DNA of 41,432 nt, from the NCBI GenBank assembly GCA_050008835.1, contig JBEKLV010000003.1, forward strand, positions 1 to 41,432, in the 5' to 3' direction. This DNA is from Bacteroidota bacterium. GTDB taxonomy: Bacteria; Bacteroidota; Ignavibacteria; UBA10030. Below are positions 5,361-31,765 of the stretch, piece by piece. A program made the translations under genes and the position numbers. Numbering within the stretch: the stretch's first letter is position 1; each line of letters opens with the position of its first letter. The notes below the pieces were generated by a model. That model searched no databases and had not been told where the DNA came from. It worked only from the letters and a program-made list of their open reading frames with translations.

Positions 5361-6245
5361 TTACGCAGGCAATTCCGTATGAACATAACGGTGAAAGTTT
5401 TTTGGAAACTTTTTCCGTAATTGCAGAACCATCGCTACTAGAATCTTTAGCGGTGACGATAAGCGAATACGTTTGGAAAAAACATCATATTGTGCGCGCT
5501 CAATCCTGAGTAGAAGTAAATAATATATATTCCCCATTGTACGAGCAGCAGTAAAAAGCGGTTTGTCTTCTTCAGAAAGGCATGCCTTAGCGCGGCGAAA
5601 ATATTCATGGGTACGTTTACATTCGAACTTCATTAGTTCGACAAATCGTTCGTTGTATGTAAAGCTCAACAAATCATCTTCAGAATAATTGAACTTTTGC
5701 AAATCTTCTGACGGCAAATAAATGCGTCCGCGTTTAGCGTCAGATTTAATATCTCTCAATATATTTGTCAATTGTAAGGCAACGCCGAGGTTGATGGCAT
5801 ATTGCTTTGTCTTTTCATTAGTATAACCGAATACTTCTGCGCAAATCAATCCTACCGTGGAAGCAGCGCGATAGCAATATTGTTCTAATTCAGAAAATGT
5901 AGTGTAGCGCTTATTTAGCAAATCCATTTCCATTCCCTTAATCAACTCATAAAAAAGTTCAATAGGAATATGAAAGCGTTTGATAATAGCAGAAAGTTTG
6001 TTTAATAGTGAATAATGCGATATTCCGTAGAGCGAGCGCCGCAACTCTTCTGTCCATTGCAAGAGCAGCGCATACTTTTCTTTCTCGTCTCCGGCCTCAT
6101 CTACAATGTCATCGGTGAAGCGGCAAAAGGCGTAAATGGTTTCAATGGCGTCGCGTTTCGGGCGCGGCAAAATAAGAAATGAGTAATAGAAACTGCTCTT
6201 CCGATTCTGCGAGAAATCCGGTATGATCGATGTTGCTGTTTGCAT
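5361..6245 (-). CDS. hpnD: Presqualene diphosphate synthase HpnD (squalene/phytoene synthase family)
   Basis: SSFYYSF, YAFCRFTDDIVDE, LQLTNILRDIKSDAKRGRIYLP; follows an hpnC-like gene. Confidence 0.8.
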   Translation of the reverse strand: MQTATSIIPDFSQNRKSSFYYSFLILPRPKRDAIETIYAFCRFTDDIVDEAGDEKEKYALLLQWTEELRRSLYGISHYSLLNKLSAIIKRFHIPIELFYELIKGMEMDLLNKRYTTFSELEQYCYRAASTVGLICAEVFGYTNEKTKQYAINLGVALQLTNILRDIKSDAKRGRIYLPSEDLQKFNYSEDDLLSFTYNERFVELMKFECKRTHEYFRRAKACLSEEDKPLFTAARTMGNIYYLLLLRIERAQYDVFSKRIRLSSPLKILVAMVLQLRKKFPKNFHRYVHTELPA

Positions 6246-6254
6246 GCTTGTAAG

Positions 6255-7157
6255 TTACAATAAAAATGAACGAAAGAGAAGTCCCAGCTTGTCCAACTTC
6301 GAAAGTGCCGGGCGTTTCGTCAGCACGTCATAATTCTGCTCATGAATCTTTTGTAAAATCCTTGTCCCGCCATTCCAGGTAAGTTTTAATTCCATCGACA
6401 GATCTCTGCCAACCATAGTCAAAAGTGGCTTTCCTTCTGCAAAAAGTTCCGCAGTGCGCCGTACTTGAAACGCCATCAAATCGCAAAAGCGATTATTAAC
6501 TTTTTGATTAAACAAATCCTGTTCGGAATAACCGAATTCTTCCAATTCTTCTAATGGAAGATAGACACGATCCTTCTGCAAGTCTATCGAAACATCCTGC
6601 CAAAAGTTCGTTAATTGCAAAGCTGTGCAGATTGAATCCGAAAACTGCATCATTGTTTCACTGCGATAATTAAGCAGTAGCAGGACTAATCTTCCGATTG
6701 GATTAGCTGAGTTGCGGCAGTACGCAAGCATATCTTCATACGTTTCGTAACGTTTAACTGTTATATCCGCTCGGAAGGCAGAAAGAAGATTCTGGAATAG
6801 TTCGATTGGAATTTGAAATCGTTCAACCGTTTCAGCAAGTGCAGCAAACACGCGATGCGTAGGATTGCCGTTATAGCATTCATCAAGGTACTGTTCCCAT
6901 TGATTCATGTTATCCATTCGTTCAGCGAGTGTAAAACCCGGTTCATCGGCATAATCATCTGCGATACGAGCGAATGCATAAATTGTCCAGACATATTTTC
7001 GTATTTCTTTTGGAAGAAAGCTGGAGGCAACAGGAAAATTTTCGTAGTGATTGCGAGCGATTGTCTCACAGTAACGGAATCCATCTTCCGCTGACCAGTA
7101 TTTGCCCTTGATATGAAGTTTTGGATTGTTCATTTTAAGAAGATTAGTGAAACGCAT
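6255..7157 (-). CDS. hpnC: Squalene synthesis protein HpnC
   Basis: HYENFPVAS, YAFARIADDYADE and LQLTNFWQD are HpnC-typical. Alternative start at ATG 7133. Confidence 0.85.
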   Translation of the reverse strand: MRFTNLLKMNNPKLHIKGKYWSAEDGFRYCETIARNHYENFPVASSFLPKEIRKYVWTIYAFARIADDYADEPGFTLAERMDNMNQWEQYLDECYNGNPTHRVFAALAETVERFQIPIELFQNLLSAFRADITVKRYETYEDMLAYCRNSANPIGRLVLLLLNYRSETMMQFSDSICTALQLTNFWQDVSIDLQKDRVYLPLEELEEFGYSEQDLFNQKVNNRFCDLMAFQVRRTAELFAEGKPLLTMVGRDLSMELKLTWNGGTRILQKIHEQNYDVLTKRPALSKLDKLGLLFRSFLL

Positions 7158-7205: not shown

Positions 7206-9167
7206 TCAAGCGTTTGATGGAACAACATCATCCACTGGAACTGTGTATACTTCAATTGGTGTATTAAGTCCTTTAACAAGAACAGGTTCATGTGGAAGAG
7301 TGGGAATTTCGTCTTTGATCAAATCATAAGTCCGGCGGGAAATCATAATACCCTCTACCGGTGCATTTGATTCAAGACGGTTAGCAAGATTGACATCGGA
7401 GCCAAGAACGGTGTATGCAAGTTTCTTCCGCGTACCCATATTTCCCACTACAACCTCGCCGGTGTTAATGCCGATACGAATTTTTAAGGGGAACAACCCT
7501 TCCTTAACCCATTTTTCTTTTAGCTCACGACATTTCTTCTGCATCTCGATACCAGCGTTCACACACCTGACGGCATGATCCGGTTGCGGTTCTGGGGCGC
7601 CAAAGAATACCATTAGCCCGTCGCCAATGTACTTATCGACGGTTCCTTCGTACTTAAAAACTATCTGTACCATTGCATCGAAATACTCAGCCAGGAAGTT
7701 TTGGATTTGATCCGGTGTCATCGTAGAAGAATAAGTTGTGAAACTCTTGATATCTGTAAACATAATTGTCAGTTCTTTTTTCTGAACTTCGAAAATCGAC
7801 TCAGGATGTGCAAGCTGACGTTTGACTACCGACGGCGGTAAATATGCCTCGAATGATCTTTGCGTTGCCTCCTTTTCTCGCTCCTCATTAATGAACCGAT
7901 ACACAAGAACAGCAAACACCGCCGTTGCAGTGATGAGAATAGGCCGCAGAAGATTAACGATGAGATTGCCATAAAGGAAAATGCTAATGGTGAAGATAAT
8001 ATATCCGACCAAAAGCGCAAGAGCACCAACCCATAATCCGCGGGAAGAAAATTTGATAGCAAACATAGCAACAATAAGTAGTAAAATAATTTCGATACCG
8101 ATTTTTTCCACCCCGCTGGCTTCTTTTAAGAAATTCTCGGTCAGGATTGTGTTCAGGACATTTGCATGTAATCCGCCAAGCGGGTACCATGTATCCGTTG
8201 GCACAGATTGAACATCCGACGCTCCGGTTGAGGCTTCGTTCACAACAACGATCTTGTCTTTGAACAATGGTTTCCAATCAAATTCCATCGCATCATGATC
8301 ATCGGAAACTTTGTAGACCTGATCCATTTTGTAATCCACCATCCGCCCCCAAGGGCCAACAAAGTTCACAATAAGATTACATCGTTCATCGACCGGAATG
8401 CTAATAGTGTGGGGCTGCTGTCCGGAGCGATACGCACCGATCAAGGTAATACTTTTTCCTGGGTGAAGGATGATCTGTTCCGGTTTCACATGCAGATAAT
8501 CACAAATTGTTCTGAAGGGGAAACTTGGATAGAATGCATCGTCATATCGGATCAAGAGAGGAGCGCGGCGGAAAATACCATCACGGTCTGCTTTTAAATT
8601 AAGATAACCCAAACCTCGAGTTGCAGATGCCATTTCCGGAAATGTAATAGTCGGAATCCCGCCCACATACATCTTGCTGGTATCCCCCTCAACCTGAACA
8701 TGCCATTTGGTTTTTGAAAGATATTCCCAATGTGATGCAGGGCGCAGTGGTTTTTGAAGAAGCGGTTTGTCTTGAAGATCAAGCGACATTCCATAATAAA
8801 CATTTCCAGCTGCTTGATGATTACAAGCTATAAAAAAAGAGTCTTCCGCTGCGATCAATGGCGCACGGAAAATATAGTCCCAGATTTGAGCAGCCACCTG
8901 CATTTCGCCAAGATTCCGGACAATCTGTCCATATTGACGACGGGTAATATAGGTTCCTTCCGATAACACATCTATACTTCTGTCTGTTTCGCTGACATGA
9001 ATAATAGTGCTGTCGTAGGGAATTCGGGAAGGAAAATATTGAGACCGGAGAACAAAAATTTGGTCGAATGCCTGCGTGTTCCATGTTTCAAACACGTTCG
9101 GCAGCAGCCAAAAAAGGAGATGTCCAAACAAGAGAGAGGACACGATGATGATCATCGTGTCCCTCAA
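7206..9167 (-). CDS. CHASE2-domain membrane class III adenylyl cyclase
   Basis: N-terminal TM, CHASE2 motifs (NLKADRDGIFRRAPL, GGLHANVLNTIL) and three TMs. Cyclase motifs MFTDIKSFT, DKYIGDGLM, GINTGEVVVGNMG, YTVLGSDVNLANRLE; Lys/Thr fit ATP specificity. Start uncertain (TTG 9167 or ATG 9155); the track start at 9266 overlaps the upstream gene. Confidence 0.88.
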   Translation of the reverse strand: MRDTMIIIVSSLLFGHLLFWLLPNVFETWNTQAFDQIFVLRSQYFPSRIPYDSTIIHVSETDRSIDVLSEGTYITRRQYGQIVRNLGEMQVAAQIWDYIFRAPLIAAEDSFFIACNHQAAGNVYYGMSLDLQDKPLLQKPLRPASHWEYLSKTKWHVQVEGDTSKMYVGGIPTITFPEMASATRGLGYLNLKADRDGIFRRAPLLIRYDDAFYPSFPFRTICDYLHVKPEQIILHPGKSITLIGAYRSGQQPHTISIPVDERCNLIVNFVGPWGRMVDYKMDQVYKVSDDHDAMEFDWKPLFKDKIVVVNEASTGASDVQSVPTDTWYPLGGLHANVLNTILTENFLKEASGVEKIGIEIILLLIVAMFAIKFSSRGLWVGALALLVGYIIFTISIFLYGNLIVNLLRPILITATAVFAVLVYRFINEEREKEATQRSFEAYLPPSVVKRQLAHPESIFEVQKKELTIMFTDIKSFTTYSSTMTPDQIQNFLAEYFDAMVQIVFKYEGTVDKYIGDGLMVFFGAPEPQPDHAVRCVNAGIEMQKKCRELKEKWVKEGLFPLKIRIGINTGEVVVGNMGTRKKLAYTVLGSDVNLANRLESNAPVEGIMISRRTYDLIKDEIPTLPHEPVLVKGLNTPIEVYTVPVDDVVPSNA

Positions 9168-9177
9168 TGTTCGTTTT

Positions 9178-9876
9178 TTACTGGTGGTCAATAGTAATGG
9201 TTTTGCTATAGAAGTTATTGGCGCTGATCTGCGTGGCAATTGTAGCGACATCCGGGCGTCGCGCACCTTCCACCTTCTCTGTTCCGCGTATGTTACCTCC
9301 TATGGTTAGCGGTTTCTCGGCAATTGTTGCATAGGTTGAGTAACGCTTCCTCACACTGCGAATTAGTGATACAATATCATCGGCCATGGACTGCCTCTTC
9401 GACGTATCGGCAGAAAAATAATTGCCAAGTTTTACTTCCAGATCAAGCAAACGTTCGGTAGAGGCGAGGAGGAAGAAAACTTCCTTACCCGTATTTTTAT
9501 CAAACGCCCTCCAACTGCGACCTTTGGGAACATAGTAATTTTTGTCGGCGGTGTAGTCGGCTTGAAACTGACGTACCTCATAAGGGAAGAGCAAATTTAT
9601 TTCACCCTTTGAATCCTGGTGAACAACATAAACAAAACAATCCTTTCTCAGCTTCACCATCATTTTTATTTCTTCTCCGCTTATCAGCGTGGTATCATGC
9701 GTGATGGAGACCATTGTCTTGCTTTTACCGATAAGAGCGCCAAATGCCCAATCAAATCCGATGTTTGCCTCGCTTTGTTGAACTATCGGATCGGCTGGCG
9801 CCTGTGATTGTTCGCCGGATCGAAATCCGACTGCGAAACAACCCAAAAAAACCACAAAAAGAATGAAGTAACGCAT
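9178..9876 (-). CDS. Secreted DUF4384-like protein
   Basis: Signal peptide (possible lipobox FLGC). DCFVYVVHQDSKGEINLLFP...GKEVFFLLAS matches the DUF4384 pattern. Confidence 0.72.
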   Translation of the reverse strand: MRYFILFVVFLGCFAVGFRSGEQSQAPADPIVQQSEANIGFDWAFGALIGKSKTMVSITHDTTLISGEEIKMMVKLRKDCFVYVVHQDSKGEINLLFPYEVRQFQADYTADKNYYVPKGRSWRAFDKNTGKEVFFLLASTERLLDLEVKLGNYFSADTSKRQSMADDIVSLIRSVRKRYSTYATIAEKPLTIGGNIRGTEKVEGARRPDVATIATQISANNFYSKTITIDHQ

Positions 9877-9900
9877 ACTTAGGATCCTTTCTTCATTTAT

Positions 9901-12306
9901 TCAATGAGGGACAGTTGCAATAGTCATTTCTTTATCGTATTCCGTCTGACTCCGTGTTGGATTTTGAGCACCGTGCGTCTTGCGTTTAACCTGTTCTTCT
10001 ACGTACCGCATTAATTCATTGATTGTCACAGTATAGTCATTATCGTAATCCGCCTTGCCTTCTAAACCTTCTAGCATATAATAGGTGAATACGCCATGAC
10101 CCATGTCCGGGAATTCCTGCGACACTTCACCTGCAGCACTCGCAGTAAATACTACAATACCTTCTTTTGTTTTCGACAAGTCTGCGAGGTATTGATTTAC
10201 TAAATTGGGTTCTGAGCTTCCCAAGCCGCGTGTGGCAAAGTTGACACTGATGCCGCCACTGTGGCAAGCATCGGTAAACACAATAACACGCTTGGCGCTG
10301 ATGTACCGCGCTAACACCGTTTGAATATCCCACATAGGAAATGCTGAAGTTCCCAATGATGTTGGATCGCTGTCATATGTTAACAAGTACATATTCTGAG
10401 GACGTGCCGGCTCTGGTGCACCATGACCTGCGAAGTATATAATAACAAGATCCATATCAATTGCTTGGTTGAGAAAATTGATCAAATTAGCTCTTACATT
10501 TGCAAGCGTAGCATCTTTGTTTAACAATAAATGCAAGTGGTCAGAATCGTAACCGCCACCTTCTGGCCGGCGCAGAAAATTTGCGAAGGCTTCAGCATCT
10601 TTATCAGCAAATTTTAAGCTGGGAATGCCTGGATTTTGATATTCTGAAACACCGACTATTACTGCCCATGCTTGCGGACCAGAACCCTGAATACGCTCTT
10701 TCTTTGCACCGCTTGAAATGAGAGGGGCATTTCCAAGAATCGATGCTTTTCTATTAATGCCGATCGTTTTGGAAAATTTTTCTCCGCTTTTACTAGTGAT
10801 AGAAAGTTGAATCTGATTATATCCAGCAACCAGCGGCACTTCATCTGTAATTACATCGCCTGCTACTTTGAATTCTGGTACTTGACTATTCACAATATCA
10901 ACCATGTTCACGGAAATCGAATATGAGGCGACATCAAACCATGTCCGGAATTTTACGGGAGCAGACATCAATTCTGTTTCTGAATTAACGAGCGGATATT
11001 CTACTTCTACTGCCTGATCATTTGAAAGGCGCTGAACAAACCCCCTTTGGCTGACAGAATGTTTCGCATTGTCTGCAACCTTGATTTCAAATGGAATCAG
11101 ACCAACCGAATCCAATTTCAATACTGTGCTAAAACGCTTGATGGCTTTCATTCCCGCCGGAACTTTGACAGTATCTTTTGCGGTAAACGCTGACAGCATA
11201 AGCGGCTTTCCGTTGAATGTCGCTTCTTTCAATCCTGAATCGTCAAATACTACGCCGTGGATTTCATACTCTCCACCAAATACCTTGGCTATAGTCGTAC
11301 TATCAGCGGTATTCTCTAAAACAATTCCAGGATTTGTCGTATCAGGCGGGGCTAGGGCGATTTTCCAACTTTTCAGTTTACCCCCGCTTGTGCTTGTAAG
11401 AAGTGTTTCATCATTCAAGAAAGCCGCATAAGTGGTACGGCCATCGCGCTCAATCATTGTCTTGACGGTAGATAGCGTTATTAAATCATAGAACTTAAGC
11501 GAACTGTCAGCAGCAGCGGAAACAAGCCAGCGCGATTTCGGATCAAATGACACAGAGGCAATCATACCTCTCTGACTGTACTTTAATTTTAAGGCGCCTG
11601 TTTGAGTATCCCATAGATATACACTTCCATCAACAGCGCCGGCGGCAAGAAATTTTCCATCAGCACTATAAGTAATTGTTGAAATTTTATCTTTGCTATC
11701 GATGAAAGTCTTTTGAAGTTCTAATTTTGTAATAGCATAAACTTGAATCTTGCCTGTAGATAATCCAACTGCAAAATACTTAGCGTTTGGATGAACGGCC
11801 ATCGCTGTTGCCTCTTCCTGAAAATCTGGTAACGATCCTATCTCATCACCATTACTAGTTTCTGTAATGATTACCCTTTTATCAAAACCGGCAGAAAACA
11901 CCCAATTTTCTCCCTGAAATGCTATCGATGTGATTCCAAGTGAGTGAGGGGATAGTTTTTTAAGATCGTTTGGAGCATTTATGTTGAACAAGTATGCATT
12001 TCCATCTGCGGCTCCGAGTGCCAGTGTTTGTCCTGATGCGGAAAAAGATAACGTATTCACGTGTGTCGGTACGGAGACAAGTATCGATTTCTCTTTGAGT
12101 GCTGGAATATCATAAAGTTTGACTTTACCTTCCGAAGTGAGAATTCCGAGCAAGTTAGCTTTCAATGAAACTGCACAGAAATCAATAGAATTTTTAACGG
12201 CATCTATAGATTGAAGCTGCTCTATATACAATTCCTGCTGCGAGTAGGAAACTGATGTGGCTATAATTAATACTAGCCACACGCAGAGAACAATTCTTCG
12301 TTCCAT
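9901..12306 (-). CDS. Secreted WD40-repeat, Ig-like, caspase-family (peptidase C14) protein
   Basis: AAGGAG RBS before ATG 12306 and a signal peptide. WD40 repeats (e.g. YSADGKFLAAGAVDGSVYLWD). C14 domain with WAVIVGVSEY, YFAGHG, FTDACHSG, HGVFTYYMLEGL and QNP. Confidence 0.9.
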   Translation of the reverse strand: MERRIVLCVWLVLIIATSVSYSQQELYIEQLQSIDAVKNSIDFCAVSLKANLLGILTSEGKVKLYDIPALKEKSILVSVPTHVNTLSFSASGQTLALGAADGNAYLFNINAPNDLKKLSPHSLGITSIAFQGENWVFSAGFDKRVIITETSNGDEIGSLPDFQEEATAMAVHPNAKYFAVGLSTGKIQVYAITKLELQKTFIDSKDKISTITYSADGKFLAAGAVDGSVYLWDTQTGALKLKYSQRGMIASVSFDPKSRWLVSAAADSSLKFYDLITLSTVKTMIERDGRTTYAAFLNDETLLTSTSGGKLKSWKIALAPPDTTNPGIVLENTADSTTIAKVFGGEYEIHGVVFDDSGLKEATFNGKPLMLSAFTAKDTVKVPAGMKAIKRFSTVLKLDSVGLIPFEIKVADNAKHSVSQRGFVQRLSNDQAVEVEYPLVNSETELMSAPVKFRTWFDVASYSISVNMVDIVNSQVPEFKVAGDVITDEVPLVAGYNQIQLSITSKSGEKFSKTIGINRKASILGNAPLISSGAKKERIQGSGPQAWAVIVGVSEYQNPGIPSLKFADKDAEAFANFLRRPEGGGYDSDHLHLLLNKDATLANVRANLINFLNQAIDMDLVIIYFAGHGAPEPARPQNMYLLTYDSDPTSLGTSAFPMWDIQTVLARYISAKRVIVFTDACHSGGISVNFATRGLGSSEPNLVNQYLADLSKTKEGIVVFTASAAGEVSQEFPDMGHGVFTYYMLEGLEGKADYDNDYTVTINELMRYVEEQVKRKTHGAQNPTRSQTEYDKEMTIATVPH

Positions 12307-12348
12307 GATAAACTCCTTATTCATTTATGACACGCTATAATAACGATT

Positions 12349-12378
12349 ATCATAGAAACATTCTGTGTTGCGTGTCAA
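12349..12378 (-). promoter_or_regulatory. Putative sigma70-type promoter of the caspase operon
   Basis: Minus strand TTGACA-N18-TATGAT, about 43 nt upstream of ATG 12306. Confidence 0.45.
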
Positions 12379-22544: not shown

Positions 22545-24257
22545 TCATTTCAACAGTAACATCTTCTTTGTTTGTGAAAAACTTCCCGCCTGCAGTTGAT
22601 AAAAATACACTCCATTCGGGACTCCTTCTGTGTTCCACTGTACATAATAAGGACCAGCGGGTTTCTTTTCATTCACGAGAATTGCAACTTCGCGCCCGAG
22701 CACATCAAATACTCGCAGTGATGTATAGCTATCCATTCCTATCAAGAAACGAATAACCGTTGATGGATTAAATGGATTCGGATAATTTTGAAACAACTCA
22801 AATGAAGACGGCACCTGGTTCAATCCGTTTTCTACAGATGTTGGATATTTTTCTATATAGTTTCCCGGGAAAAGCGTTCTCCCGGTAAACGCTGCATATG
22901 TCACAGGATATTTATAGAGTCTGAATACTGAATTCAAGTATTCACCCGGATGTGTAGGGTCAGGTGGTAATGTGTCTCCCTGGGTCATAATACCGGTCGA
23001 ATTCACAGGACAAATGTATTTCCAGACGAGCACGCCAGATGATGTAACCTCCAAGAAAGTTCCTCTCGTTCCGTACGTAATTATGGTATTCCCATTAGGC
23101 AAACGCTGTGCACCGGAGATATCTTCTGCATACATCGATGTTGGAGGATTTGCAACATATGTCCAGGTAAGATTTTGAGGACCGAATGCTGTTCCGGCTA
23201 CGAGTGAATAATTTCCACTCGTATCAACCGGAGGTGTTATTTCGTCTATGGTAGAATAATTACGGCCTATACCGTTATTAAAGCACATGATGTCCCCGGC
23301 ACCAGGGCAGCCAGATTTAATCCATTCCGCATCATGCTGCTGATAATATTTCTCATCATTCATCGTCCCTGCTCCGTAGGTAATAGGATTTCCCCATCGG
23401 TACAGAAGGTCGCCTCCTTTTCCTCTTTTACCACCTGTATGACCCGCTGACTCTGTCGTTGTGGTGCTATGATCAATAATCCACACCTCGCTGTTTCCCC
23501 TTACGCTCACAGCTATCTGATTAAAAGCAGGATTGTAATCAATGCAGTTCATGTGATTCCAGAATATTGGCAGATTCTTATGATCACCTGCGGCATCTAT
23601 TAATTCCGGATGAGCACTTGGGACGCCGTAATTTAGTTTTGAAGCATCGAAATTTTGAATGAGATGATCCCACACATGCCATTCCCACACAACGTTCCCG
23701 CCAGTGGGATATGTTGGCTGTATTTCAATAACACAATCTGGAAGCAACATTTGTTTTTGCCAAAAATCCGGTTCCTGTATTTTACTCGTATCGAATCCAG
23801 CAGCGAGAATTTGTGGCGTCGTTTTTTTTTCGACTACCAGCATGATAATATTTCCATTTGGCAATCGCTTGATGTCATGGTGTTGCATATAGGTGCTCGT
23901 CGAATAATTGAGATACCAGACAAGACTGTCGTTCCAAGTATATTCTTCAACTCTTCCTCCCTCACCGCCACCGGTGCCGAGATTCCCCTGTGTCATACAT
24001 GTGCGGAGTAAATCTCCATTTTCAAGAAGATACACCGTTTGCCCAGGTGTATACTGGCTCTTTGTCCATTGATGTACAATGCGCCCATCATTATTAATCA
24101 AATAGGTCATCGTATTTTGTTTGGGGACGAACAGCGTGTACCCTGTAAATACTTTTGTCGTGTCATTTAAAAATAATCCAACTGTCCTTGTCTGTCCAGT
24201 ACCTAAAGATGATGCAAAAACAATCAATGCAACGATATGTAATTTTAATTTAATCAT
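22545..24257 (-). CDS. Aryl-sulfate sulfotransferase-family protein with T9SS CTD
   Basis: Signal peptide; QHHD, WNHMNCID, GDLLYRWGNP, QQHDAEW, SGAQRLPNGN; CTD ending KKMLLLK*. Confidence 0.8.
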   Translation of the reverse strand: MIKLKLHIVALIVFASSLGTGQTRTVGLFLNDTTKVFTGYTLFVPKQNTMTYLINNDGRIVHQWTKSQYTPGQTVYLLENGDLLRTCMTQGNLGTGGGEGGRVEEYTWNDSLVWYLNYSTSTYMQHHDIKRLPNGNIIMLVVEKKTTPQILAAGFDTSKIQEPDFWQKQMLLPDCVIEIQPTYPTGGNVVWEWHVWDHLIQNFDASKLNYGVPSAHPELIDAAGDHKNLPIFWNHMNCIDYNPAFNQIAVSVRGNSEVWIIDHSTTTTESAGHTGGKRGKGGDLLYRWGNPITYGAGTMNDEKYYQQHDAEWIKSGCPGAGDIMCFNNGIGRNYSTIDEITPPVDTSGNYSLVAGTAFGPQNLTWTYVANPPTSMYAEDISGAQRLPNGNTIITYGTRGTFLEVTSSGVLVWKYICPVNSTGIMTQGDTLPPDPTHPGEYLNSVFRLYKYPVTYAAFTGRTLFPGNYIEKYPTSVENGLNQVPSSFELFQNYPNPFNPSTVIRFLIGMDSYTSLRVFDVLGREVAILVNEKKPAGPYYVQWNTEGVPNGVYFYQLQAGSFSQTKKMLLLK

Positions 24258-24281
24258 ATCTCTCGAATTTCCAAGCTTCTG

Positions 24282-26564
24282 TTATTTTGTCAAGACCATC
24301 TTCTTCGTGGTCGTGTACGAGCCAGCTTGTATTTTGTAAAAGTAAATACCGCTGCTGAATCTTGTTGCATCCAAGGTGACTGAATACCCGCCCGGTGGTT
24401 TTACTTCATTCACCAGAACGGCAACTTCGCGTCCAAGCACATCATATAATTTCAACGTTATCAAACCGACCGCTGAAAGCTGATACCTGATGACTGTCGT
24501 GGGATTGAACGGATTTGGATAGTTCTGGTATAACCGAAATCCATCCGGATGATTTTCGCCTGATTCATTGATCCCTGTTGCAGTTCCGATATATTTTCGC
24601 GTGACACGGAACCCCACTTCACTCCACGAATCTTTCTCAGCGATCGGTCCACGATAGTACGCAGGATCACGGTTCGATACTCGTGAATGTCCGTCGTTCA
24701 CGGAGTTTATTATATCACCATTGTACCAATTTCCTCCTCGCATGCCTCGATACCGCTTGCCATCAGGCATCAGCGATGCGGAATCGAGAACAGGACCTTT
24801 TGGATTATCGTACGGACTCACACTGTAGTAGTTTGTCTCGTACCAATCATTTACAGCTTGCCATACATTACCGGCCATATCATAAAGACCAAAAGCATTT
24901 GCACCGTTGGAGGTTTGATAACTTGTTACACTTCCAGGCCAATTGTATTCAGATTTTAAATGAAGCGCCCCATTATAAAAAACCACCGGTGTTGTCCATG
25001 GATACGTTGTGGAATCTAAGCTCTCATAAGGATCCTTTGAATCGGGCCAATTGGCCTTTGTTATATCTAAATCATTTCCCCAAGGATAATTATAGTAAGG
25101 ATTTTTTTGACCGCCGCGCGCAGAATATTCCCATTCCGCTTCTGTTGGTAGGCGATAACCGGTCTTTGTAAAATCGCAGCTCTGTGTTTTGAGGGTGTAA
25201 CATTCCTGCAGCCCATTTTGCAAACTCAACCAGTTGCAGTAAGCAAGAATGCCGTACCACATAATTCCTACCACCGGGTGATTTGCCCTGAAATCAGTGA
25301 TATAGAATACTTTCCCGTCATACGATATACTGTATGAGGAAGCGTACTGGTGCGTGTAACAATAGATGTTGGTGTCTCCCACAGCGTAAACGATGTTACT
25401 TCGTACCTCTATTGATCCTTGTAACAACGATGAATTCAAAAATGCAAGATATTGTTGATTGGTTATGTCAGTTCTTGTCATAAAGAGAGAGTCGATTTTT
25501 ACTGTATGGATCGGTAGCTCATCGCTGGGATGACTTGGATCTCCAAAACCATAGTGATCGCCCATATCAAAGTTGCCACCGGGAATCAGCACTTCAACGA
25601 TATTTAAATCTTTATTATCCATTCCTCCCCGTACAAGTAAAACATTTTGTTTGGCGGTTTTATCATTGTAGGAAACAATCCCGTAATCAACATTAATATC
25701 CCATGCTATTGACGGCGTTAAATACATAGTGGTCGAAGACCAATAATTTCCTGAAAGAACATTCGGGAAATAGTGTTTATTGAATGAGGGCATAAGCAGC
25801 GTTTCGTCGTTCAATGATTGCAGTTCCTTCACACTTGGTAATCTCCAATCTGTTTTTCCAGCGAGTGAAACACTTTTACTATACACGAGGCCTTGTTCCC
25901 ACGTCATCGTATCTGGTGATTGAATTTTTTGCCAGGTCAATCCAGTATAATTATCTTTGATTGTTCCGTCAGCATTGTCGGTAAAGTGAGAGACAGAAAA
26001 TGTAGTTGAAAATGGATTCCTGACAGCCCTTACATGAAATAATTTCGTTCCGCCTGCGCTTACTGTTTCTGTCTTTGGATGAGGTCCAATTCCACCTCCG
26101 GAGTTGACGACCCACACTCTGGTAGAATCATCCGCCCGCTTTTCATTCGTCCACCAATATTGTGCCTGAGTTTTTGTAAAGAAGAGAGTATCCAACGCCG
26201 GATTGAGATGGTCGTAATTATTAATACTGAACAACTCAATGCTTGTCGGAAGGCGCCAATCAGCAAATCCCCCCAGAGTCAAATTAGTACAGTAGATGGT
26301 GGCATTCTCAATAGTCGTTTCTCCGCCATCGGTCTTCTGCCACATTAATCCAGTATTGTTATCTGTAATTGTTCCATTTCTGTTGTCGGTAAAAGACATA
26401 GGATTTATGATGAAATCCGCGTCCTCTCCCGGCGTTGAGATATAACTCGTTGATTGTCCTGTATCGGGCAGTTTGAATGGAAGAAGTTTTTGTGCCCCCA
26501 CTTGGGAAAACAACAAAACAATTATACCGGTGATGAAAGATATTCTTTGTGTTAAAGAGAACAT
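24282..26564 (-). CDS. Secreted 2xDUF1566 + FGE-sulfatase(SUMF1)-like domain protein with T9SS CTD
   Basis: Two DNxxGTIxDNxTGLxWQ...DWRLP repeats; FDMGD, YRLPTEAEWEYSARGG, NAFGLYDMAGNVW, GFR; CTD. Confidence 0.85.
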   Translation of the reverse strand: MFSLTQRISFITGIIVLLFSQVGAQKLLPFKLPDTGQSTSYISTPGEDADFIINPMSFTDNRNGTITDNNTGLMWQKTDGGETTIENATIYCTNLTLGGFADWRLPTSIELFSINNYDHLNPALDTLFFTKTQAQYWWTNEKRADDSTRVWVVNSGGGIGPHPKTETVSAGGTKLFHVRAVRNPFSTTFSVSHFTDNADGTIKDNYTGLTWQKIQSPDTMTWEQGLVYSKSVSLAGKTDWRLPSVKELQSLNDETLLMPSFNKHYFPNVLSGNYWSSTTMYLTPSIAWDINVDYGIVSYNDKTAKQNVLLVRGGMDNKDLNIVEVLIPGGNFDMGDHYGFGDPSHPSDELPIHTVKIDSLFMTRTDITNQQYLAFLNSSLLQGSIEVRSNIVYAVGDTNIYCYTHQYASSYSISYDGKVFYITDFRANHPVVGIMWYGILAYCNWLSLQNGLQECYTLKTQSCDFTKTGYRLPTEAEWEYSARGGQKNPYYNYPWGNDLDITKANWPDSKDPYESLDSTTYPWTTPVVFYNGALHLKSEYNWPGSVTSYQTSNGANAFGLYDMAGNVWQAVNDWYETNYYSVSPYDNPKGPVLDSASLMPDGKRYRGMRGGNWYNGDIINSVNDGHSRVSNRDPAYYRGPIAEKDSWSEVGFRVTRKYIGTATGINESGENHPDGFRLYQNYPNPFNPTTVIRYQLSAVGLITLKLYDVLGREVAVLVNEVKPPGGYSVTLDATRFSSGIYFYKIQAGSYTTTKKMVLTK

Positions 26565-26703
26565 AGCGTTCCCCGATTATCATTTATTTCAAGCACATCG
26601 TTTTCATACTTTTCGAATAATTACCAGCAGTAATTTTATAAAAATAAATTCTGCTGCCAAACAATAATTTTCGCGAATTGAATGATATCATATAAATTCC
26701 AGA
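26551..26703. repeat. Diverged direct repeat, copy A (partner 28170-28323)
   Basis: gagaacatagcgttccccgattatcatttatttcaagcacatc... versus gagaacatagcgctccccaattgtcatttatttcaaacatatc...; offset 1620 bp. Confidence 0.8.
26584..26703 (-). pseudogene. Orphan 39-codon 3' half of a T9SS CTD
   Basis: SGIYMISFNSRKLLFGSRIYFYKITAGNYSKSMKTMCLK* is 22/39 identical, ungapped, to the C-terminus of the 28204-30060 protein. It is preceded by an in-frame TAG. Confidence 0.8.
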
Positions 26704-26709
26704 CTAGAA

Positions 26710-28092
26710 TTATAATAACTGATCCATAACAACAGTAAATTTTGCATTTAGAAAAGGAAGATCACGGCCTCCATCAAGAACATCCATAGGGCAGACTGCA
26801 GTGACCGAAGGTATAAAAACAAACCGGCCAAATCGTATGCTAACAGGAAGCGATAGTTCATAATCTAAAATTGAAAATATATCCTTTGGACTGTTTTTCA
26901 TCTTAGTCGTAACAGTTTTTGTAACAATTTTACCTTTTTTATTTTGCTTTTGAACAAGCTCCTGCTGTCTTTCAAGAATCACCTGATTCTGTTCTCCCCA
27001 CACGCCAAGAATAGCAGGAGCAACTGTTATTGTTCTTCCGATATGCCAAGTATGTGTCGTGGTAAATTGAAAATAATATTCCGATTTATCGCTGAAATCT
27101 ATTCCAGCATTGAAGGATACATCGGCAACTGAAATTGATAGATCTAATCCAGCACCGATATTATTGTTGAAGACCGATCTGACTTGAGCGCTGCTGCTGT
27201 CAAACCAGAGATGTGTATAGCCAATTGAGCCGCCAAGGACCTGCGAAAACATAAATTCATATCCCGCACCCAAAGCAATTGCATCCCAATGTTTTTCCTG
27301 ATCTTCCATCCATGAAACACCTAATGCAAGTTTGATGCCTGTAGCATGTCGGTATGTGATTAGTGGGCTTACCGACGACTGACTTATTCCTCCATCACGG
27401 CCATGGTAGGAAGCATAACTATTGGCATCTATTGAGGCGATGAAATGGGAAGAATGATGCTCGATGGAATCTAATTGTGTATCGCGGTTCTCAATGAGCG
27501 TTTCAATATATATTTCAAGGGAATCCCTAAGTGCGGCAGCTGAATCGGTGATGGTACCGGGTATTTCACTCCATAAGTCGGATATAGAATCATGAAATGT
27601 CTGTGATGAATTGTCGGCGTCATCAAGAAAAGTGGAAAGACCGCTTTCATAATCTTCCGAACCACTGCAGCCCGAACAAGTTTGATGTGCGATCATAAGA
27701 TCTTTCATCAAACGTTGAAAACCGTCCAATTGTCTATCGAGAACCTGTTTTTGCATCTTCCCATAGTTCTTTAGCTTTCCTGAGAATTCTTTATGAAGCT
27801 GATATGCTGAATCGATTCGTGATGAATCAAGGAATTCCTTGGATGAAAGGATAAGCGAGTCACAGAATGCCTGAATTGAAGTAGTGTTAGTCGCGATTGC
27901 CGTTGATAGTAAATTAGATAATGAATCGATAAAATATTGCTGCGTGATAAGAGTTAAAACATTTGCCTTGCTAAGCGCCTGAGAATATTTCTTGCGAACG
28001 AGAGATGAATCTTCTGAAAAACGATTCTGTGCTACGAGGAACGAAATTGAAAAAAGAAATCCAAGAAATGTCGTATAAAACAATCGCTTCAT
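26710..28092 (-). CDS. Secreted hypothetical protein: helical N-terminal half, probable beta-barrel C-terminal half
   Basis: Signal peptide (LVA-Q), Ser/Asp-rich helical region with CSGC, then alternating beta strands (YHGRD, IGYTHLWF, DYELSLPV). No CTD. Confidence 0.65.
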   Translation of the reverse strand: MKRLFYTTFLGFLFSISFLVAQNRFSEDSSLVRKKYSQALSKANVLTLITQQYFIDSLSNLLSTAIATNTTSIQAFCDSLILSSKEFLDSSRIDSAYQLHKEFSGKLKNYGKMQKQVLDRQLDGFQRLMKDLMIAHQTCSGCSGSEDYESGLSTFLDDADNSSQTFHDSISDLWSEIPGTITDSAAALRDSLEIYIETLIENRDTQLDSIEHHSSHFIASIDANSYASYHGRDGGISQSSVSPLITYRHATGIKLALGVSWMEDQEKHWDAIALGAGYEFMFSQVLGGSIGYTHLWFDSSSAQVRSVFNNNIGAGLDLSISVADVSFNAGIDFSDKSEYYFQFTTTHTWHIGRTITVAPAILGVWGEQNQVILERQQELVQKQNKKGKIVTKTVTTKMKNSPKDIFSILDYELSLPVSIRFGRFVFIPSVTAVCPMDVLDGGRDLPFLNAKFTVVMDQLL

Positions 28093-28169
28093 AGTATTCC
28101 CATGCTTTCGTAAATAGCAATTCCTTTACATAGGAGAATTTAATCCCTTAGTTCTATTCAATCAAGACA

Positions 28170-28323
28170 GTTAAAGGAGAACATAGCGCTCCCCAATTGT
28201 CATTTATTTCAAACATATCATTTTCATTAGTTTTGAATAATTACCTGCAGCGAGCCGATAAAAATATATTCCACTGGACAGAGAATACTTCTGGGAATCA
28301 AATGAAACGGTATACATGCCCGG
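28170..28323. repeat. Diverged direct repeat, copy B
   Basis: 3' end of the ASST gene plus GGGGAG RBS and ATG TTC TCC (ATG at 28184), mirroring the start of the DUF1566 gene at 26564. Confidence 0.8.
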
Positions 28324-30060
28324 CTTCTGGTATTGATCAACAAGTGCCACAATTTCTCTGCCGAGTACATCATAAACTTTCAGTTGTACCATACTGCTTA
28401 CTGTTAACTCATAACTGATAATTGTCGTTGGATTAAATGGATTGGGATAGTTCTGATGAAGCACTAATTCTTTTGGGATTTCTGAATTTGCAGTACTAAT
28501 TCCACTGATAAGATTTGATGGTTTTAAGTATTGTGGAGTTTTTCCTGTAATGGTGGCCTTTCTTACTAAACTTTTTCCCTGTAGTGCCGACTCTGTCGTA
28601 ATATATCGATAAGCTCTGAACACGGAATTATACATGGGATATTGATCAGTAATGATCTGTTTTATTCCGTCGGTTGTGACAGGATTGATATATTCCCACA
28701 CAAGCTGAGGTGAATTTACCGTATCGCCGTATGTCACCTCAAAGAAGTGTCCCTGCGTATCAGAACAGATCAATGTATTTTTGTTAAGAAATCTCTGCTC
28801 GCTGCCACCGATCGTGCTAAAAAAGCTCTGGTCATTCTCGGAGCAGTAAATCCACACAACTTGATTGGAGATCAGTTTGTTTTGCTTCATTGCGTCGTTG
28901 TTTGGATAAATCCAGGTATAATATCCTGCCTGTGGTGGATTCACATATACGCCCGTGCTCATTTTTTGTGAATTGTAATACGGATTGACCTCAAAGATAT
29001 ACGACTGTGATGTTCTTTCGAAAAGGTATTCTCCATTATTAAATATCTGAATATTGCCTGCACCCGGCAATCCGGGTTTTATCCAGTGAACATCATGACT
29101 TCCACCAATCTGCTTGTTTCCGGTTGTTGATGTCGTCCAGTTCGCACCAATAGAAGGCGGGTTGCCTTGGTCGTATCGCGCTGGATCGCCAAAGCGGTAC
29201 AAAAAATCGCCCGCACTTGTTGCTGCCACTGCAATGCTTGCTGTTGGATTGCCTGCGATAAATGTATTGCCATGATCGATAATATAAAATTCGCCTGCAA
29301 CACAGTTGATCGCAACCTGATCGAGTGAATCATTGTAATCGATCGAGTTGCAATGCAGCCAGTCTTTCCGTAAGGGGACACCGGCAAGATTGATATTAAT
29401 TTTTCCTGGATAATCTGAAATCTTTTTTCCTTTTCCAACATAATTCGCTTTTGTTGAATCGTAATCCTGAATTACATGATCAAAGAACCACCACTCCCAG
29501 ACAACATTGCCGCTCATATCAATTTCTACGATGGCATCCATCTGAGCAATGGTATCTGCGATATTTGCAGGATTCGCGCCGGCGGCAAGTGCCTGTACAT
29601 TCGACAAGTTCTTGTTTGCTATATATAGTGTTGTATATGCCTTCAGCTTTTTGTTGTATATCCTCGTAAAGTCATGGTGCGGAAAATAGGTGGTCTTACG
29701 CTGTTCAGTATAGGACCATACCGTATTTCCATTCCAATCGAGCTCAGCAAATCCGGTAAAATTGCTAGGATCTGATTTGGTTGCATCCAATAAATCTCCA
29801 TTATCAAGCAATCGCGGATTGGTCCCGAGCTTCCATTGATTGATAATGTATCCTTCCATATCTATCAAATAAGTCCTTCCTGATGCTGCGAAAAGGGTGT
29901 ATCCATTATATGCTTTTGTCGAATCCCAATATCTCACTTCTGTTGCACCGATCATTCCCTCATCAGTCGTTTTCCGAAGCGATGTCGTGCTTTTTTGAGC
30001 GCATAGCGTTAGGGTGATAATCATTGATAAAACAAGAAGTGGGGATATTCTGAATTTCAT
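28204..30060 (-). CDS. Second aryl-sulfate sulfotransferase-family protein with T9SS CTD
   Basis: GGAG RBS before ATG 30060; signal peptide; PHHD, WLHCNSID, GDFLYRFG, SHDVHW; CTD. Confidence 0.78.
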   Translation of the reverse strand: MKFRISPLLVLSMIITLTLCAQKSTTSLRKTTDEGMIGATEVRYWDSTKAYNGYTLFAASGRTYLIDMEGYIINQWKLGTNPRLLDNGDLLDATKSDPSNFTGFAELDWNGNTVWSYTEQRKTTYFPHHDFTRIYNKKLKAYTTLYIANKNLSNVQALAAGANPANIADTIAQMDAIVEIDMSGNVVWEWWFFDHVIQDYDSTKANYVGKGKKISDYPGKININLAGVPLRKDWLHCNSIDYNDSLDQVAINCVAGEFYIIDHGNTFIAGNPTASIAVAATSAGDFLYRFGDPARYDQGNPPSIGANWTTSTTGNKQIGGSHDVHWIKPGLPGAGNIQIFNNGEYLFERTSQSYIFEVNPYYNSQKMSTGVYVNPPQAGYYTWIYPNNDAMKQNKLISNQVVWIYCSENDQSFFSTIGGSEQRFLNKNTLICSDTQGHFFEVTYGDTVNSPQLVWEYINPVTTDGIKQIITDQYPMYNSVFRAYRYITTESALQGKSLVRKATITGKTPQYLKPSNLISGISTANSEIPKELVLHQNYPNPFNPTTIISYELTVSSMVQLKVYDVLGREIVALVDQYQKPGMYTVSFDSQKYSLSSGIYFYRLAAGNYSKLMKMICLK

Positions 30061-30097
30061 TATATCATCTCCATTATAATGATAAGTTCCTAACATT

Positions 30098-31765
30098 TTA
30101 TTTTATGAGCATCATTTTCATTGTTGACCGATACGATCCGGTCGAGAGTGTACAGAAATATAAACCGCTTCCTGCAGTGTGAGCGTCCCATGTGGCAGCG
30201 TACGTTCCCGGACTTTTTATTCCATCAACCAGTCTTGCCACTTCCTGACCAAGGGTACTATAGATCGTGATAGTAACCCGCGAAGATTGTGGTACTGTAT
30301 ATCGAATTGTTGTAGTTGGATTAAACGGATTGGGATAGTTCTGGCTTAAAGTAAATTTATTCGGGACTGGATTGAGATCAATGACATCTGTCGTGCTAGC
30401 TGTTTTAACGATAGTATAAGAATGACTGATGTCCCGGTTATGGATCTGAGTATTCTCTTCGCTCGGAAGATACGTTCTGATATACTTTATTGCTGTGCTG
30501 GTGTCTGTCACGTTTACTAACAGGTAACCTCGGCTCGGAATGATGACGCCGTTGACATACCCGTATTGAGCAGCGGAATTACTAGTGTAACTTCTTGCGG
30601 AAGGTTGTGGTACTTCCTGATACACAATTCCATCTTTATCCTGTTTTCCGTAAAAATGGTCATGCCCGTGAAAGAAAATGGTTACATTATTTTCGAGCAT
30701 CAACGTATGAATCAGTTTCTGCCAGCCGGTGCGATATATATCAAATCCCCACGTGGAATCAGCATTTCTTCCCCCATGTTCAAAGAAAGGTGCAAATTCA
30801 ATTCCTCCTCTTCCATCGTTGCCGTTTCCACCGATCAATTGATGACAGAAGACAAATTTGAATTTTGCCTTGCTTGCAGACAAGACAGTTTTGAGCCAAT
30901 TATACTGATCGACCCCGAGCGTCCAACCCCAATCCGGTTTAGATTTTGTATACCAAAACGGATCGAGCACAATGAATAATGCGCTTCCCCATTCCCATGA
31001 ATAATAATTTTGACGTAGGCCGACAAATGCTTCATTCGTAGAATTTCCCGAGTAAAAATTATCCGGCACCGGGTTAGGATAATATTTTATTCGTGTATTC
31101 GAAGCCATCACAGGAAGATTGTTTGCTGTTCCATCCAGAAGCCAACCGAGCTCGCCTTCGTGATTGCCGATGACTAAATACAGTGGAATGCTATGACAGA
31201 TTAAATCATAATAAGAACGGAGAAGCAAATGACGAATGGTAATGCTGTCCTGCGTTGGATTTTGAAGCTTTTCCGACATAAATGTGTCGCCTAAGTCGAT
31301 GAGAAAATCAGGACTTTCCAAAAGGATATTTTGAAGTGTGAGCGCATACACAGCAGGATTTGAGTTTTCATCGAGATGTGGATCTGCTTCAATGGCAAAT
31401 ACAAACGTGCTTCCTGATGGCCGTTGTGTGTGAAAGCTATGACTGGTTCGGGTAAGAAAATTTATCGTTCCGCCCTGCCGGTATCTCATTCTATAATAAT
31501 ATTTTGTATCAGGATTTAAATTACTGATAACAAAAACAAAAGGGAGACTATCGATACAGCTTTTTACACTCGTCTGATTGAGGTAATTGAGAGAATCGGT
31601 TCCATATTCATAGTACACATCCAAATCTTTATTTGCACAAGCGTGAATTGTCACCGAGGTGTTAGTCGGTCTTCCCAACAATTCATTACAAATAAACTGA
31701 ACTTGCGCACTGCATAGTGCCAGATGCAAAATAATTATCAATGCAGTAGTTACAATTATTCTCAT
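30098..31765 (-). CDS. Purple-acid-phosphatase-like metallophosphoesterase (FN3 + calcineurin-like) with T9SS CTD
   Basis: NLNPDTKYYY FN3 motif; ADPH, LGD, GNHE and GHDH metal ligands; CTD. Confidence 0.85.
   Translation of the reverse strand: MRIIVTTALIIILHLALCSAQVQFICNELLGRPTNTSVTIHACANKDLDVYYEYGTDSLNYLNQTSVKSCIDSLPFVFVISNLNPDTKYYYRMRYRQGGTINFLTRTSHSFHTQRPSGSTFVFAIEADPHLDENSNPAVYALTLQNILLESPDFLIDLGDTFMSEKLQNPTQDSITIRHLLLRSYYDLICHSIPLYLVIGNHEGELGWLLDGTANNLPVMASNTRIKYYPNPVPDNFYSGNSTNEAFVGLRQNYYSWEWGSALFIVLDPFWYTKSKPDWGWTLGVDQYNWLKTVLSASKAKFKFVFCHQLIGGNGNDGRGGIEFAPFFEHGGRNADSTWGFDIYRTGWQKLIHTLMLENNVTIFFHGHDHFYGKQDKDGIVYQEVPQPSARSYTSNSAAQYGYVNGVIIPSRGYLLVNVTDTSTAIKYIRTYLPSEENTQIHNRDISHSYTIVKTASTTDVIDLNPVPNKFTLSQNYPNPFNPTTTIRYTVPQSSRVTITIYSTLGQEVARLVDGIKSPGTYAATWDAHTAGSGLYFCTLSTGSYRSTMKMMLIK

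Follow-up and report, generated by a model that had tools for sequence, protein, structure and literature searches.

A recurrent gene trio of Ignavibacteria encoding a caspase-type protease, a DUF4384 protein and a CHASE2 adenylate cyclase: a candidate envelope-to-cytoplasm signalling module

CHASE2 is a bacterial sensor domain of wide occurrence, and the literature still lists its signals as unknown (PMC5192318). The CHASE2 adenylate cyclases of Sinorhizobium meliloti, the only ones of this type known to have been studied, are reported to need an accessory envelope protein and to sense a signal of protein nature (PMC13001267, PMC7529298), and CHASE2 gene clusters with FecR and tetratricopeptide repeat (TPR) proteins have been presented through bioinformatic descriptions and the mutant phenotype of a response-regulator gene (PMC9239204, PMC5192318). 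As for caspase-like proteases, the Microcystis orthocaspase MaOC1 is reported to cleave a protein encoded by a neighboring gene (PMC7935541). Some Csx30 substrates of the caspase-like protease Csx29 are reported to possess a C-terminal DUF4384 domain, the N- and C-terminal domains of Csx30 being joined by a flexible linker that is the proposed Csx29 cut site, and DUF4384 is said in the same source to be often fused to proteases (bioRxiv 10.1101/2022.08.17.504292). A review lists both CHASE2 and DUF4384 as caspase-associated domains. Here, we analyze a stretch of 41,432 nucleotides (nt), hereafter the window, from the genome of an uncultured peat bacterium of the class Ignavibacteria, in which three tightly packed minus-strand genes encode a caspase-type protease, a small DUF4384 protein (the partner) and a membrane receptor that makes cyclic AMP (cAMP) and carries CHASE2.

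The linkage of these genes suggests, without proving it, that a protein cut outside the cytoplasm switches a CHASE2 receptor. We propose that the trio is a conserved envelope-to-cytoplasm signalling module of Ignavibacteria and of some metagenome-assembled genomes (MAGs) of Desulfobacterota type, and we regard this scheme, taken as a whole with the mechanism developed below, as evenly poised between right and wrong.

Recurrence of the trio across genomes

Open reading frames (ORFs) and Pfam matches confirmed the three co-oriented genes of the initial annotation on the minus strand, in the order caspase (WD40 and Peptidase_C14, hereafter C14), partner and CHASE2 cyclase (Table 1). That annotation had placed gaps of at most 25 nt between them. 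This holds for the caspase and partner genes, which are separated by 24 nt, whereas the partner and cyclase genes overlap by 14 nt when the cyclase is started at TTG 9191 and are separated, by 22 nt, only when it is started at ATG 9155. The overlap follows from the TTG start, which orthologues support: the conserved N terminus MTTSKKR... begins there, and it is the first possible start in several of them. It adds a positively charged cytoplasmic tip ahead of the first transmembrane segment (TM1) of the cyclase. For the caspase, most orthologues begin aligning at position 12306 (Met7), which is therefore likelier as the start than 12324.

To place the trio in its order, 61 genomes were scanned with three Pfam models and the coordinates were compared by script. 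Recurrence had been set beforehand as a point on which the reading depended, and the trio does recur: in 28 of the 61 genomes, C14, DUF4384 and CHASE2 are found no more than 3 kb apart with order and strand preserved, and the matched segments of neighboring domains are separated by nearly fixed distances of about 240 nt and 338 nt. The window's own family contributes 24 of its 37 genomes, three other families contribute 2/3, 1/3 and 1/3, and five families have none (0/3 each). The three genes stand in another order in one genome (G052), and two genomes (G027 and G036) have DUF4384 and CHASE2 with no C14 within 3 kb. Seen from the receptor, 32 of the 145 CHASE2 matches in the order have a DUF4384 match nearby. 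The genome of the window, 3.37 Mb in size, holds only three C14, three DUF4384 and three CHASE2-cyclase genes, so that chance adjacency is negligible.

A second survey was anchored on the partner. An alignment of 20 orthologues was searched against contigs representing one genome per species, and the loci of the best 80 of 145 relatives were scanned with hidden Markov models (HMMs) built from orthologue alignments. Since the loci were picked by likeness to the partner, the counts describe the neighbors of the partner family, not all CHASE2 or C14 genes. CHASE2 lies directly downstream of the partner in every one of the 78 loci that extend at least 600 nt on that side, and C14 directly upstream in 68 of the 72 that extend at least 2.6 kb on the other (with WD40 in 66 of the 68), the caspase adjoining the partner across sequence identities down to about 30 to 40%. 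Partner and cyclase therefore make up the constant core, with the caspase as a nearly constant third component. Thus, of the three-part reading given initially, the recurrent unit stands, but the obligate pair is the partner and the cyclase. The four loci without an adjacent C14 gene (L077, L087, L089 and L091) have unrelated genes upstream (a TPR protein, trigger factor, EamA). All four genomes encode C14 elsewhere; under the trio C14 model, for which the median is 494 bits, these proteins reached 333 and 263, about 115, about 115, and 29 bits, respectively.

Six of the 80 loci are labelled as MAGs of Desulfobacterales, Desulfobacteraceae, Thermodesulfobacteriota or "delta proteobacterium". 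Two of these six loci of Desulfobacterota type that have sufficient flanking sequence (L102 and L109) carry TPR or Ig-like modules in place of WD40 at the N terminus of the caspase. The N-terminal module is exchangeable while the catalytic domain is kept; the WD40 propeller, initially assigned the sensing of a cue, is thus present in the window and replaceable elsewhere.

Two further arrangements were seen in one family of the order, where caspase/DUF4384 units stand on either side of a CHASE2 cyclase (L029 716-7634, genome G044; L031 2529-9448, genome G060). In L029 (5844-7634) the unit downstream is a single fusion of DUF4384 and C14 with a length of 596 amino acids (aa), whereas in L031 it comprises two separate genes.

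Predicted properties of the three proteins

Export and topology of all three proteins were predicted from a Kyte-Doolittle hydrophobicity scan. The partner has an N-terminal hydrophobic segment, and the AlphaFold2 (AF2) model of its mature form (predicted local distance difference test score, pLDDT, 88; predicted template modeling score, pTM, 0.84) is built from a beta-sandwich followed by two helices, after which come a strand, a loop and, folded back against the domain, a C-terminal hairpin. The fold matched only generic Ig-like structures (Foldseek best E 8.4e-3), and a VIA search gave a best Z of 7.2 (root mean square deviation, rmsd, 4.3; 124 aligned) to an S-layer protein, followed by filamin, macroglobulin-type and other domains, none of which gave a lead on function. 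A possible lipoprotein motif (FLGC, residues 10-13, 9838-9849, with Cys13) was considered and rejected: the Cys is kept only in the closest relatives, and the N terminus is therefore read as a Sec signal or anchor, lipidation being no trait of the family.

The partner family is large. Against 1.84 billion proteins, it matched 3881 clusters (at 50% identity) at E <= 1e-3, 1053 at <= 1e-10 and 243 at <= 1e-30. The best 150 representatives are all short stand-alone proteins of 136 to 293 aa; a search for fused, longer forms among 1658 candidates gave none at E <= 0.001, which is weak evidence. We aligned the window protein with 139 cluster representatives, the full-length ones among those best 150 (n = 140). 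R197, located in the flexible loop that precedes the hairpin, is kept in 139 of the 140 sequences, G194 in 132, P189 in 130 and E187 in 126; position 198 is occupied by G, S or A in 125, and the following ten positions vary in sequence and length, as in a linker. The C-terminal tail is not present in the two paralogous DUF4384 proteins of the genome, which adjoin caspases but not CHASE2.

The caspase was matched by WD40_WDHD1_1st (150.3 bits, cut-off 109.9), by WD40 (81.9 bits, cut-off 27) and by Peptidase_C14. An HMM ("mid") built from the region between propeller and protease found matches in 69 of the 80 related loci, and the equivalent region of L102 and L109 matches the Ig-like models Glucodextran_B or Big_7. 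Mean identity to the window protein is about 0.75 in the C14 domain versus about 0.4 in the WD40 region. The catalytic His/Cys dyad is invariant among the aligned orthologues (19/19 and 28/28), and the nearest solved relatives of the domain in a profile search are metacaspases, with AtMC4 first (E 1.4e-9) and also Yca1, AtMC9 and GSU0716; judged by these residues, the protease looks catalytically competent. Also invariant are the Asp of ADKD and that of DACHS, which align with Asp residues of AtMC4. We take them to be the residues of the metacaspase S1 pocket that set specificity for Arg or Lys at P1, and the caspase is thus probably Arg/Lys specific. A conserved Arg-Gly located 12 residues past the catalytic Cys (R155 in at least 90% and G156 invariant, numbering of alignment A4) is a possible autoprocessing site. 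Pfam detected no type IX sorting domain in the protein, which we therefore read as periplasmic and not surface exported.

Taken together, a near-invariant R197 in a low-confidence loop of the partner and a caspase that keeps its dyad and the presumed acidic pocket residues make R197 a candidate cut site. An Arg followed by a small residue, opening an exposed and variable linker beside a protease expected to prefer Arg, is the pattern of a candidate processing site. The loop could equally be a binding epitope that becomes ordered on contact.

All five motifs of the cyclase align residue for residue with those of CyaB (3r5g), its best-scoring solved relative (E 1.2e-44). They contain what we take to be the metal-binding Asp, the substrate-selecting Lys/Thr and the transition-state Asn/Arg residues, and the protein looks like an ATP-using class III enzyme. 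Its hydrophobic segments, residues 1-22 and 346-424 of the ATG-start protein, agree with the reported topology of CHASE2 proteins, one TM before the domain and three after (PMC3501461). The AF2 model of the periplasmic CHASE2 domain is of high quality (pLDDT 92.7, pTM 0.91). Foldseek found no match to it in the PDB at E <= 0.001, and in a VIA search the best hit was the C-terminal domain of a Mur ligase (Z 5.1, rmsd 3.0, 109 aligned), no caspase being listed. The idea that CHASE2 is a pseudo-caspase that pairs with the protease was also considered and set aside as unsupported, hhalign having given a probability of 0.4% between the CHASE2 and C14 profiles. Co-folding of the CHASE2 periplasmic domain with the mature partner scored 0.00, a value that counts neither for nor against contact. 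In a few relatives (L034, L038, L099, L108, G002:C3 266323-267376 and G008), the CHASE2 part of the cyclase is split over at least two ORFs, which could be frameshifts, decayed genes or assembly errors.

Several features proposed at the outset are borne out by this analysis: the caspase His (in AGHG) and Cys (in DACHSG), invariant in 28 of 28 orthologues; the N-terminal hydrophobic leaders of the caspase and of the DUF4384 protein; the class III motifs; and the presence of predicted extracytoplasmic parts in all three proteins, with CHASE2 between hydrophobic segments.

Table 1. Features of the trio in the window (positions are those of the whole stretch; TM, transmembrane)
Feature	Position	Strand	Details
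Caspase gene (WD40 + Peptidase_C14)	9901..12306	-	801 aa from ATG 12306
Caspase gene, longest ORF	9901..12324	-	807 aa from alternative ATG 12324
Signal-peptide-like hydrophobic segment of caspase	12241..12306	-	About the first 22 residues from Met7; Kyte-Doolittle scan
WD40 beta-propeller	11359..12204	-	About residues 41-322 (807-aa numbering); Pfam WD40 models
Caspase middle region, residues 331-544 (214 residues)	10693..11334	-	No Pfam match; conserved among surveyed orthologues
Peptidase_C14 domain, residues 553-798	9931..10668	-	PF00656, 71 bits, cut-off 21.4
Catalytic His634 in YFAGHG	10423-10425	-	
Catalytic Cys687 in TDACHSGG	10264-10266	-	
Candidate S1 Asp residues	ADKD (10582-10617 region) and DACHS	-	
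DUF4384 partner gene	9178..9876	-	232 aa; N-terminal hydrophobic segment
DUF4384 domain (PF14326), residues 66-141	9454..9681	-	57.2 bits, cut-off 27; part of Ig-like beta-sandwich
Partner flexible loop, residues 193-204 (GGNIRGTEKVEG)	9265..9300	-	Sole model segment with pLDDT <50
R197 of partner	9286-9288	-	Candidate protease cut site or binding epitope
Conserved partner C-terminal hairpin, ending ...NFYSKTITIDHQ	9181..9264	-	Specific to the CHASE2-linked subfamily
CHASE2 receptor adenylate cyclase gene	7206..9191	-	661 aa from TTG 9191
Cyclase, alternative starts	ATG 9155; longest ORF 7206..9266	-	649 aa from ATG 9155; 686 aa for longest ORF
Periplasmic CHASE2 domain (PF05226)	8121..9089	-	108.6 bits, cut-off 26.3; between TM1 and C-terminal TM block
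Hydrophobic block after CHASE2, about 79 residues	7884..8120	-	Consistent with three TM helices (Kyte-Doolittle)
Class III cyclase catalytic domain	7242..7781	-	PF00211 (Guanylate_cyc), 112.9 bits, cut-off 21.9
Cyclase motifs	FTDI 7749-7760; KYIGDG 7617-7634; RIGINTG 7458-7478; YTVLGS 7398-7415; NLANRLES 7368-7391	-	
Sigma-70-like promoter match TTGACA-18-TATGAT	12378..12349	-	11/12; in 266-nt spacer upstream of caspase gene
Perfect hairpin, 12 bp	9137..9163	-	Over internal GAGGGA/ATG (9155), within first 20 cyclase codons from TTG

A proposed protease-switched receptor and its alternatives

In the scheme that we propose, two proteins would form the core, an adenylate cyclase of the membrane that carries a CHASE2 sensor in the periplasm and an exported Ig-like DUF4384 co-receptor dedicated to it, both produced from translationally coupled genes; the third component would be a periplasmic caspase-type cysteine protease with a constant catalytic domain and a variable N-terminal module. 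The propeller and Ig-like part at the N terminus of the protease would bind a periplasmic cue or scaffold, and the active protease would cut the exposed loop of the partner after R197 (G-x-[VIL]-R, then G/S/A). The cut would separate or unlatch the conserved C-terminal hairpin, so that the partner, or the freed hairpin, would engage CHASE2 differently. Cyclase activity and cAMP would then change, and some of the six cNMP_binding ORFs that the genome holds could encode the readers of this cAMP. What we infer here is that the partner binds CHASE2 and is cut at R197, together with the direction of the cAMP effect and the nature of the cue. The most specific version, in which an Arg-specific caspase cuts a DUF4384 pro-ligand or co-receptor and the freed hairpin switches CHASE2, is possible, though we rate it as less likely than not.

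Several observations weigh against the scheme. Of the 145 CHASE2 matches in the order, 113 have no DUF4384 match nearby, and most CHASE2 receptors therefore work without the module. Among the 64 DUF4384 matches of the 61 genomes, 42 are accompanied by C14 at a distance of up to 3 kb and 33 by CHASE2, and in the genome of the window a DUF4384 gene follows each of the three C14 genes, with CHASE2 next only at the window locus. The caspase-DUF4384 pair is thus general and has other downstream genes, so that DUF4384 may primarily serve the protease. R197 and the tail are kept in the four loci without an adjacent caspase, and the motif may therefore serve CHASE2 binding instead of cleavage; moreover, the basic P1 specificity of the caspase is read from aligned residues. 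As a weak point in favor of the scheme, contigs from three RNA libraries labelled peat metagenome (X22 to X24), 95 to 99% alike, match pieces of all three genes; one of 131 nt bridges the caspase/partner junction with 53 and 54 nt on either side, and one of 197 nt covers the 3' end of the partner gene and, with the cyclase ORF begun at TTG, the initial 39 nt of that ORF. These contigs represent close relatives and may include DNA carry-over, a contig covering two genes is no proof of one transcript, and most of the 5.35-kb stretch is uncovered, which says nothing on expression; they give a weak hint of expression.

Could the DUF4384 protein then belong to the protease, as an inhibitor, a chaperone or a substrate-recruiting subunit, with CHASE2 being a protease substrate or a sensor of peptides released from envelope or foreign proteins? 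The pairing just described, in which the three C14-DUF4384 pairs of the genome precede three different third genes, speaks for this, as do fused DUF4384-C14 proteins such as that of L029 (5844-7634), reported also in papers, and the peptidic nature reported for the signal of the S. meliloti CHASE2 cyclases. We nevertheless find it somewhat unlikely: the partner stays with CHASE2 in 78 of 78 loci, including the 4 of 72 without an adjacent caspase, its tail was not found in other caspase-linked DUF4384 proteins, and its gene overlaps that of the cyclase, not that of the caspase. These three points tie the partner more tightly to the receptor than to the protease. The same tie could be taken further, making the partner a nonproteolytic CHASE2 co-receptor or ligand-binding subunit with a FecR-like role and leaving the caspase as a coregulated envelope protease that acts on other substrates, as in quality control or the acquisition of nutrients, and has no part in switching. 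CHASE2 receptors elsewhere are reported to cluster with secreted FecR-domain and TPR proteins and no protease (PMC9239204, PMC5192318), and the partner-cyclase pair persists in the four caspase-less loci with its Arg loop intact. Yet the caspase adjoins in 68 of 72 loci, the second phylum swaps the N-terminal module and keeps the catalytic domain, and flanking genes are less conserved than the caspase, MgsA being present in only 11 of 80 loci; we judge this explanation unlikely.

A conflict, defense or programmed-death system, with a caspase effector and a cyclic-nucleotide signal (Pycsar-like or of EACC type), would explain the generic PADLOC matches to "caspase" (5.2e-15) and to the PycC cyclase models (up to 2.1e-30), and the best NCBIfam caspase model is indeed "caspase, EACC1-associated type". 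That model (NF047832) scored 113.2 bits, however, under its cut-off of 140, and the PycC matches are confined to the class III catalytic domain that the enzymes have in common; its best solved relatives are adenylate cyclases with the same motifs. Pfam scans of the flanks and of the window gave no gene for a cNMP-binding effector adjacent to the trio, an exported caspase cannot dismantle the cytoplasm, and the setting is one of housekeeping genes, with synteny to squalene-synthase-like genes in 32 of 57 loci, not a variable island. A defense role is therefore highly improbable, and the initial preference for signalling over cell-death defense agrees with the housekeeping setting and with the six cNMP-binding ORFs.

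Genomic setting and comparison with known systems

The single putative promoter placed ahead of the trio by the initial annotation has a counterpart in the 11/12 match upstream of the caspase gene, but the region is no richer in such sites than shuffled sequence (12 found versus 13.2 +/- 3.8), so that it stands as a consensus match only; sites were scored against a sigma-70-like consensus, and the promoter type of the host lineage may differ. Near the start of the cyclase gene, the 12-bp hairpin might modulate its translation.

The trio is surrounded by housekeeping genes, with no sign of a mobile or defense island. Downstream lie two squalene/phytoene-synthase-like (SQS_PSY) genes, a MerR regulator and citrate synthase, and upstream lie MgsA, DivIC and D-Ala-D-Ala ligase; permeases, arginine biosynthesis genes and several proteins with a type IX secretion sorting domain are found farther out in the window. 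The SQS_PSY genes (5361-7157, minus strand) are on the same strand and begin 48 nt past the cyclase gene. The synteny mentioned above refers to SQS_PSY homologues that start at most 600 nt downstream of the cyclase, counted among the 57 related loci (within L034-L090) with at least 1.5 kb of room; the pair is not present in more distant loci, and upstream, as noted, MgsA is common to only 11 loci. The transcript may run on into these lipid genes, or the block may merely be co-inherited.

Elsewhere in the genome, the gene after one paralogous caspase-DUF4384 pair (contig C82, L010 3-6738) encodes an open-ended surface protein, longer than 1738 aa, that carries FG-GAP, BNR, TIG and fn3 domains, and the gene after the other (contig C381, L011 210-4051) encodes a 493-aa protein without a Pfam match. 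These pairs suggest a modular caspase-DUF4384 unit acting on different envelope proteins. The two other CHASE2 cyclases of the genome have no DUF4384 or C14 neighbor. One (contig C112, L013 3234-8219) lies 51 nt after the gene of an 895-aa protein, and the other (contig C357, L012 61-4653) lies near an IS1/DDE transposase-like ORF; even with the threshold relaxed to E <= 1, Pfam yielded nothing usable for their neighbors (the 895-aa protein on C112 and proteins of 104 and 198 aa on C357).

The window also contains a run of genes for type IX sorting-domain proteins (22545-31765 on the minus strand and 4-819 on the plus strand), which includes two arylsulfotransferase-like proteins, a protein with Lcl_C and FGE-sulfatase domains, a metallophosphoesterase and a 460-aa ORF (26710-28092) without a Pfam match. 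A gene for a sigma factor of the extracytoplasmic function (ECF) type (33229-33807) stands upstream of that of a Metal_resist/LTXXQ periplasmic protein (32040-32891), on the minus strand, forming a possible envelope-stress pair.

Among described systems, the CHASE2 cyclases CyaD1, CyaD2 and CyaK of S. meliloti with their accessory protein NsrA are reported to resemble the trio in combining an inner-membrane class III CHASE2 cyclase with a separate envelope protein, and cAMP is read there by a CRP-type regulator. NsrA, however, is a large outer-membrane beta-barrel, and no protease is known to take part there, whereas the trio has a 232-aa DUF4384 protein and an exported caspase; we found no gene for an NsrA-like outer-membrane beta-barrel in the cluster or its immediate flanks, the rest of the genome not having been searched. 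A CHASE2 receptor with a small exported partner, as in the trio, is also reported in the adenylate-cyclase cluster of Campylobacterota and in the BiofilmReg operon of Burkholderia contaminans (PMC9239204, PMC5192318). In these FecR-type clusters, the partner is reported to be FecR, with or without LysM, there is no caspase, and the Burkholderia output is a histidine kinase, while the partner in the trio is a DUF4384 protein and FecR had no match at E <= 0.01 in the three trio proteins (Pfam).

The protease of the trio shares its His/Cys dyad and aligned acidic residues with metacaspases and orthocaspases (C14B: AtMC4, Yca1, AtMC9, Geobacter GSU0716, Microcystis MaOC1). The characterized members are cytoplasmic or eukaryotic, whereas the trio caspase has a predicted signal peptide, a WD40 propeller and a neighboring receptor cyclase. 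A caspase-fold protease that signals by cutting a neighbor-encoded protein, as proposed for the trio, is reported in the type III-E CRISPR Craspase (Csx29/Csx30); Craspase is, however, cytoplasmic and RNA guided, uses a CHAT-type protease and has a sigma-factor output, and it is not homologous to the trio as a system. The metacaspase-CHASE2 protein of Trichodesmium and the EACC2 caspases with a C-terminal CHASE2 are reported fusions of the two domain families of the trio (PMC2853523, PMC3501461, PMC8195603). The caspase of these fusions is predicted to lie in the cytoplasm and to act as the output of CHASE2, whereas in the trio the caspase would be on the outer side with CHASE2 and the cyclase would be the output. 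In the literature on CHASE2, DUF4384 and caspases/metacaspases, supplements not covered, we found no description of a unit made of an exported caspase, DUF4384 and a CHASE2 cyclase.

The trio is a defined set of three proteins with a specific candidate cut site, R197, and a cAMP readout. If our scheme is correct, it would provide a mechanism for one CHASE2 subfamily and a function for a DUF4384 subfamily of at least 243 clusters at 50% identity. Discussion of bacterial caspase homologues mostly centers on cell death, and few of their substrates are known; the scheme, if correct, would give an exported caspase a role in signalling and not in death. Should the protease link fail, the pairing of partner and cyclase in 78 of 78 loci would still mark DUF4384 as a candidate CHASE2 co-receptor.

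In DegS-RseA of E. coli and in Easter/Spaetzle/Toll of insects, an extracytoplasmic protease cuts a dedicated protein and thereby passes a signal across the membrane. The likeness to the trio concerns its proposed workings only and is a functional analogy, since the protein families and the outputs are unrelated. The R197 switch, if real, would make the trio a bacterial protease-activated receptor in the manner of Spaetzle/Toll and the first defined switching mechanism of a CHASE2 receptor. Compared with described systems, the trio is a variation on the known theme of a CHASE2 receptor with an exported accessory protein, to which it adds a caspase-type protease and a candidate cut site.

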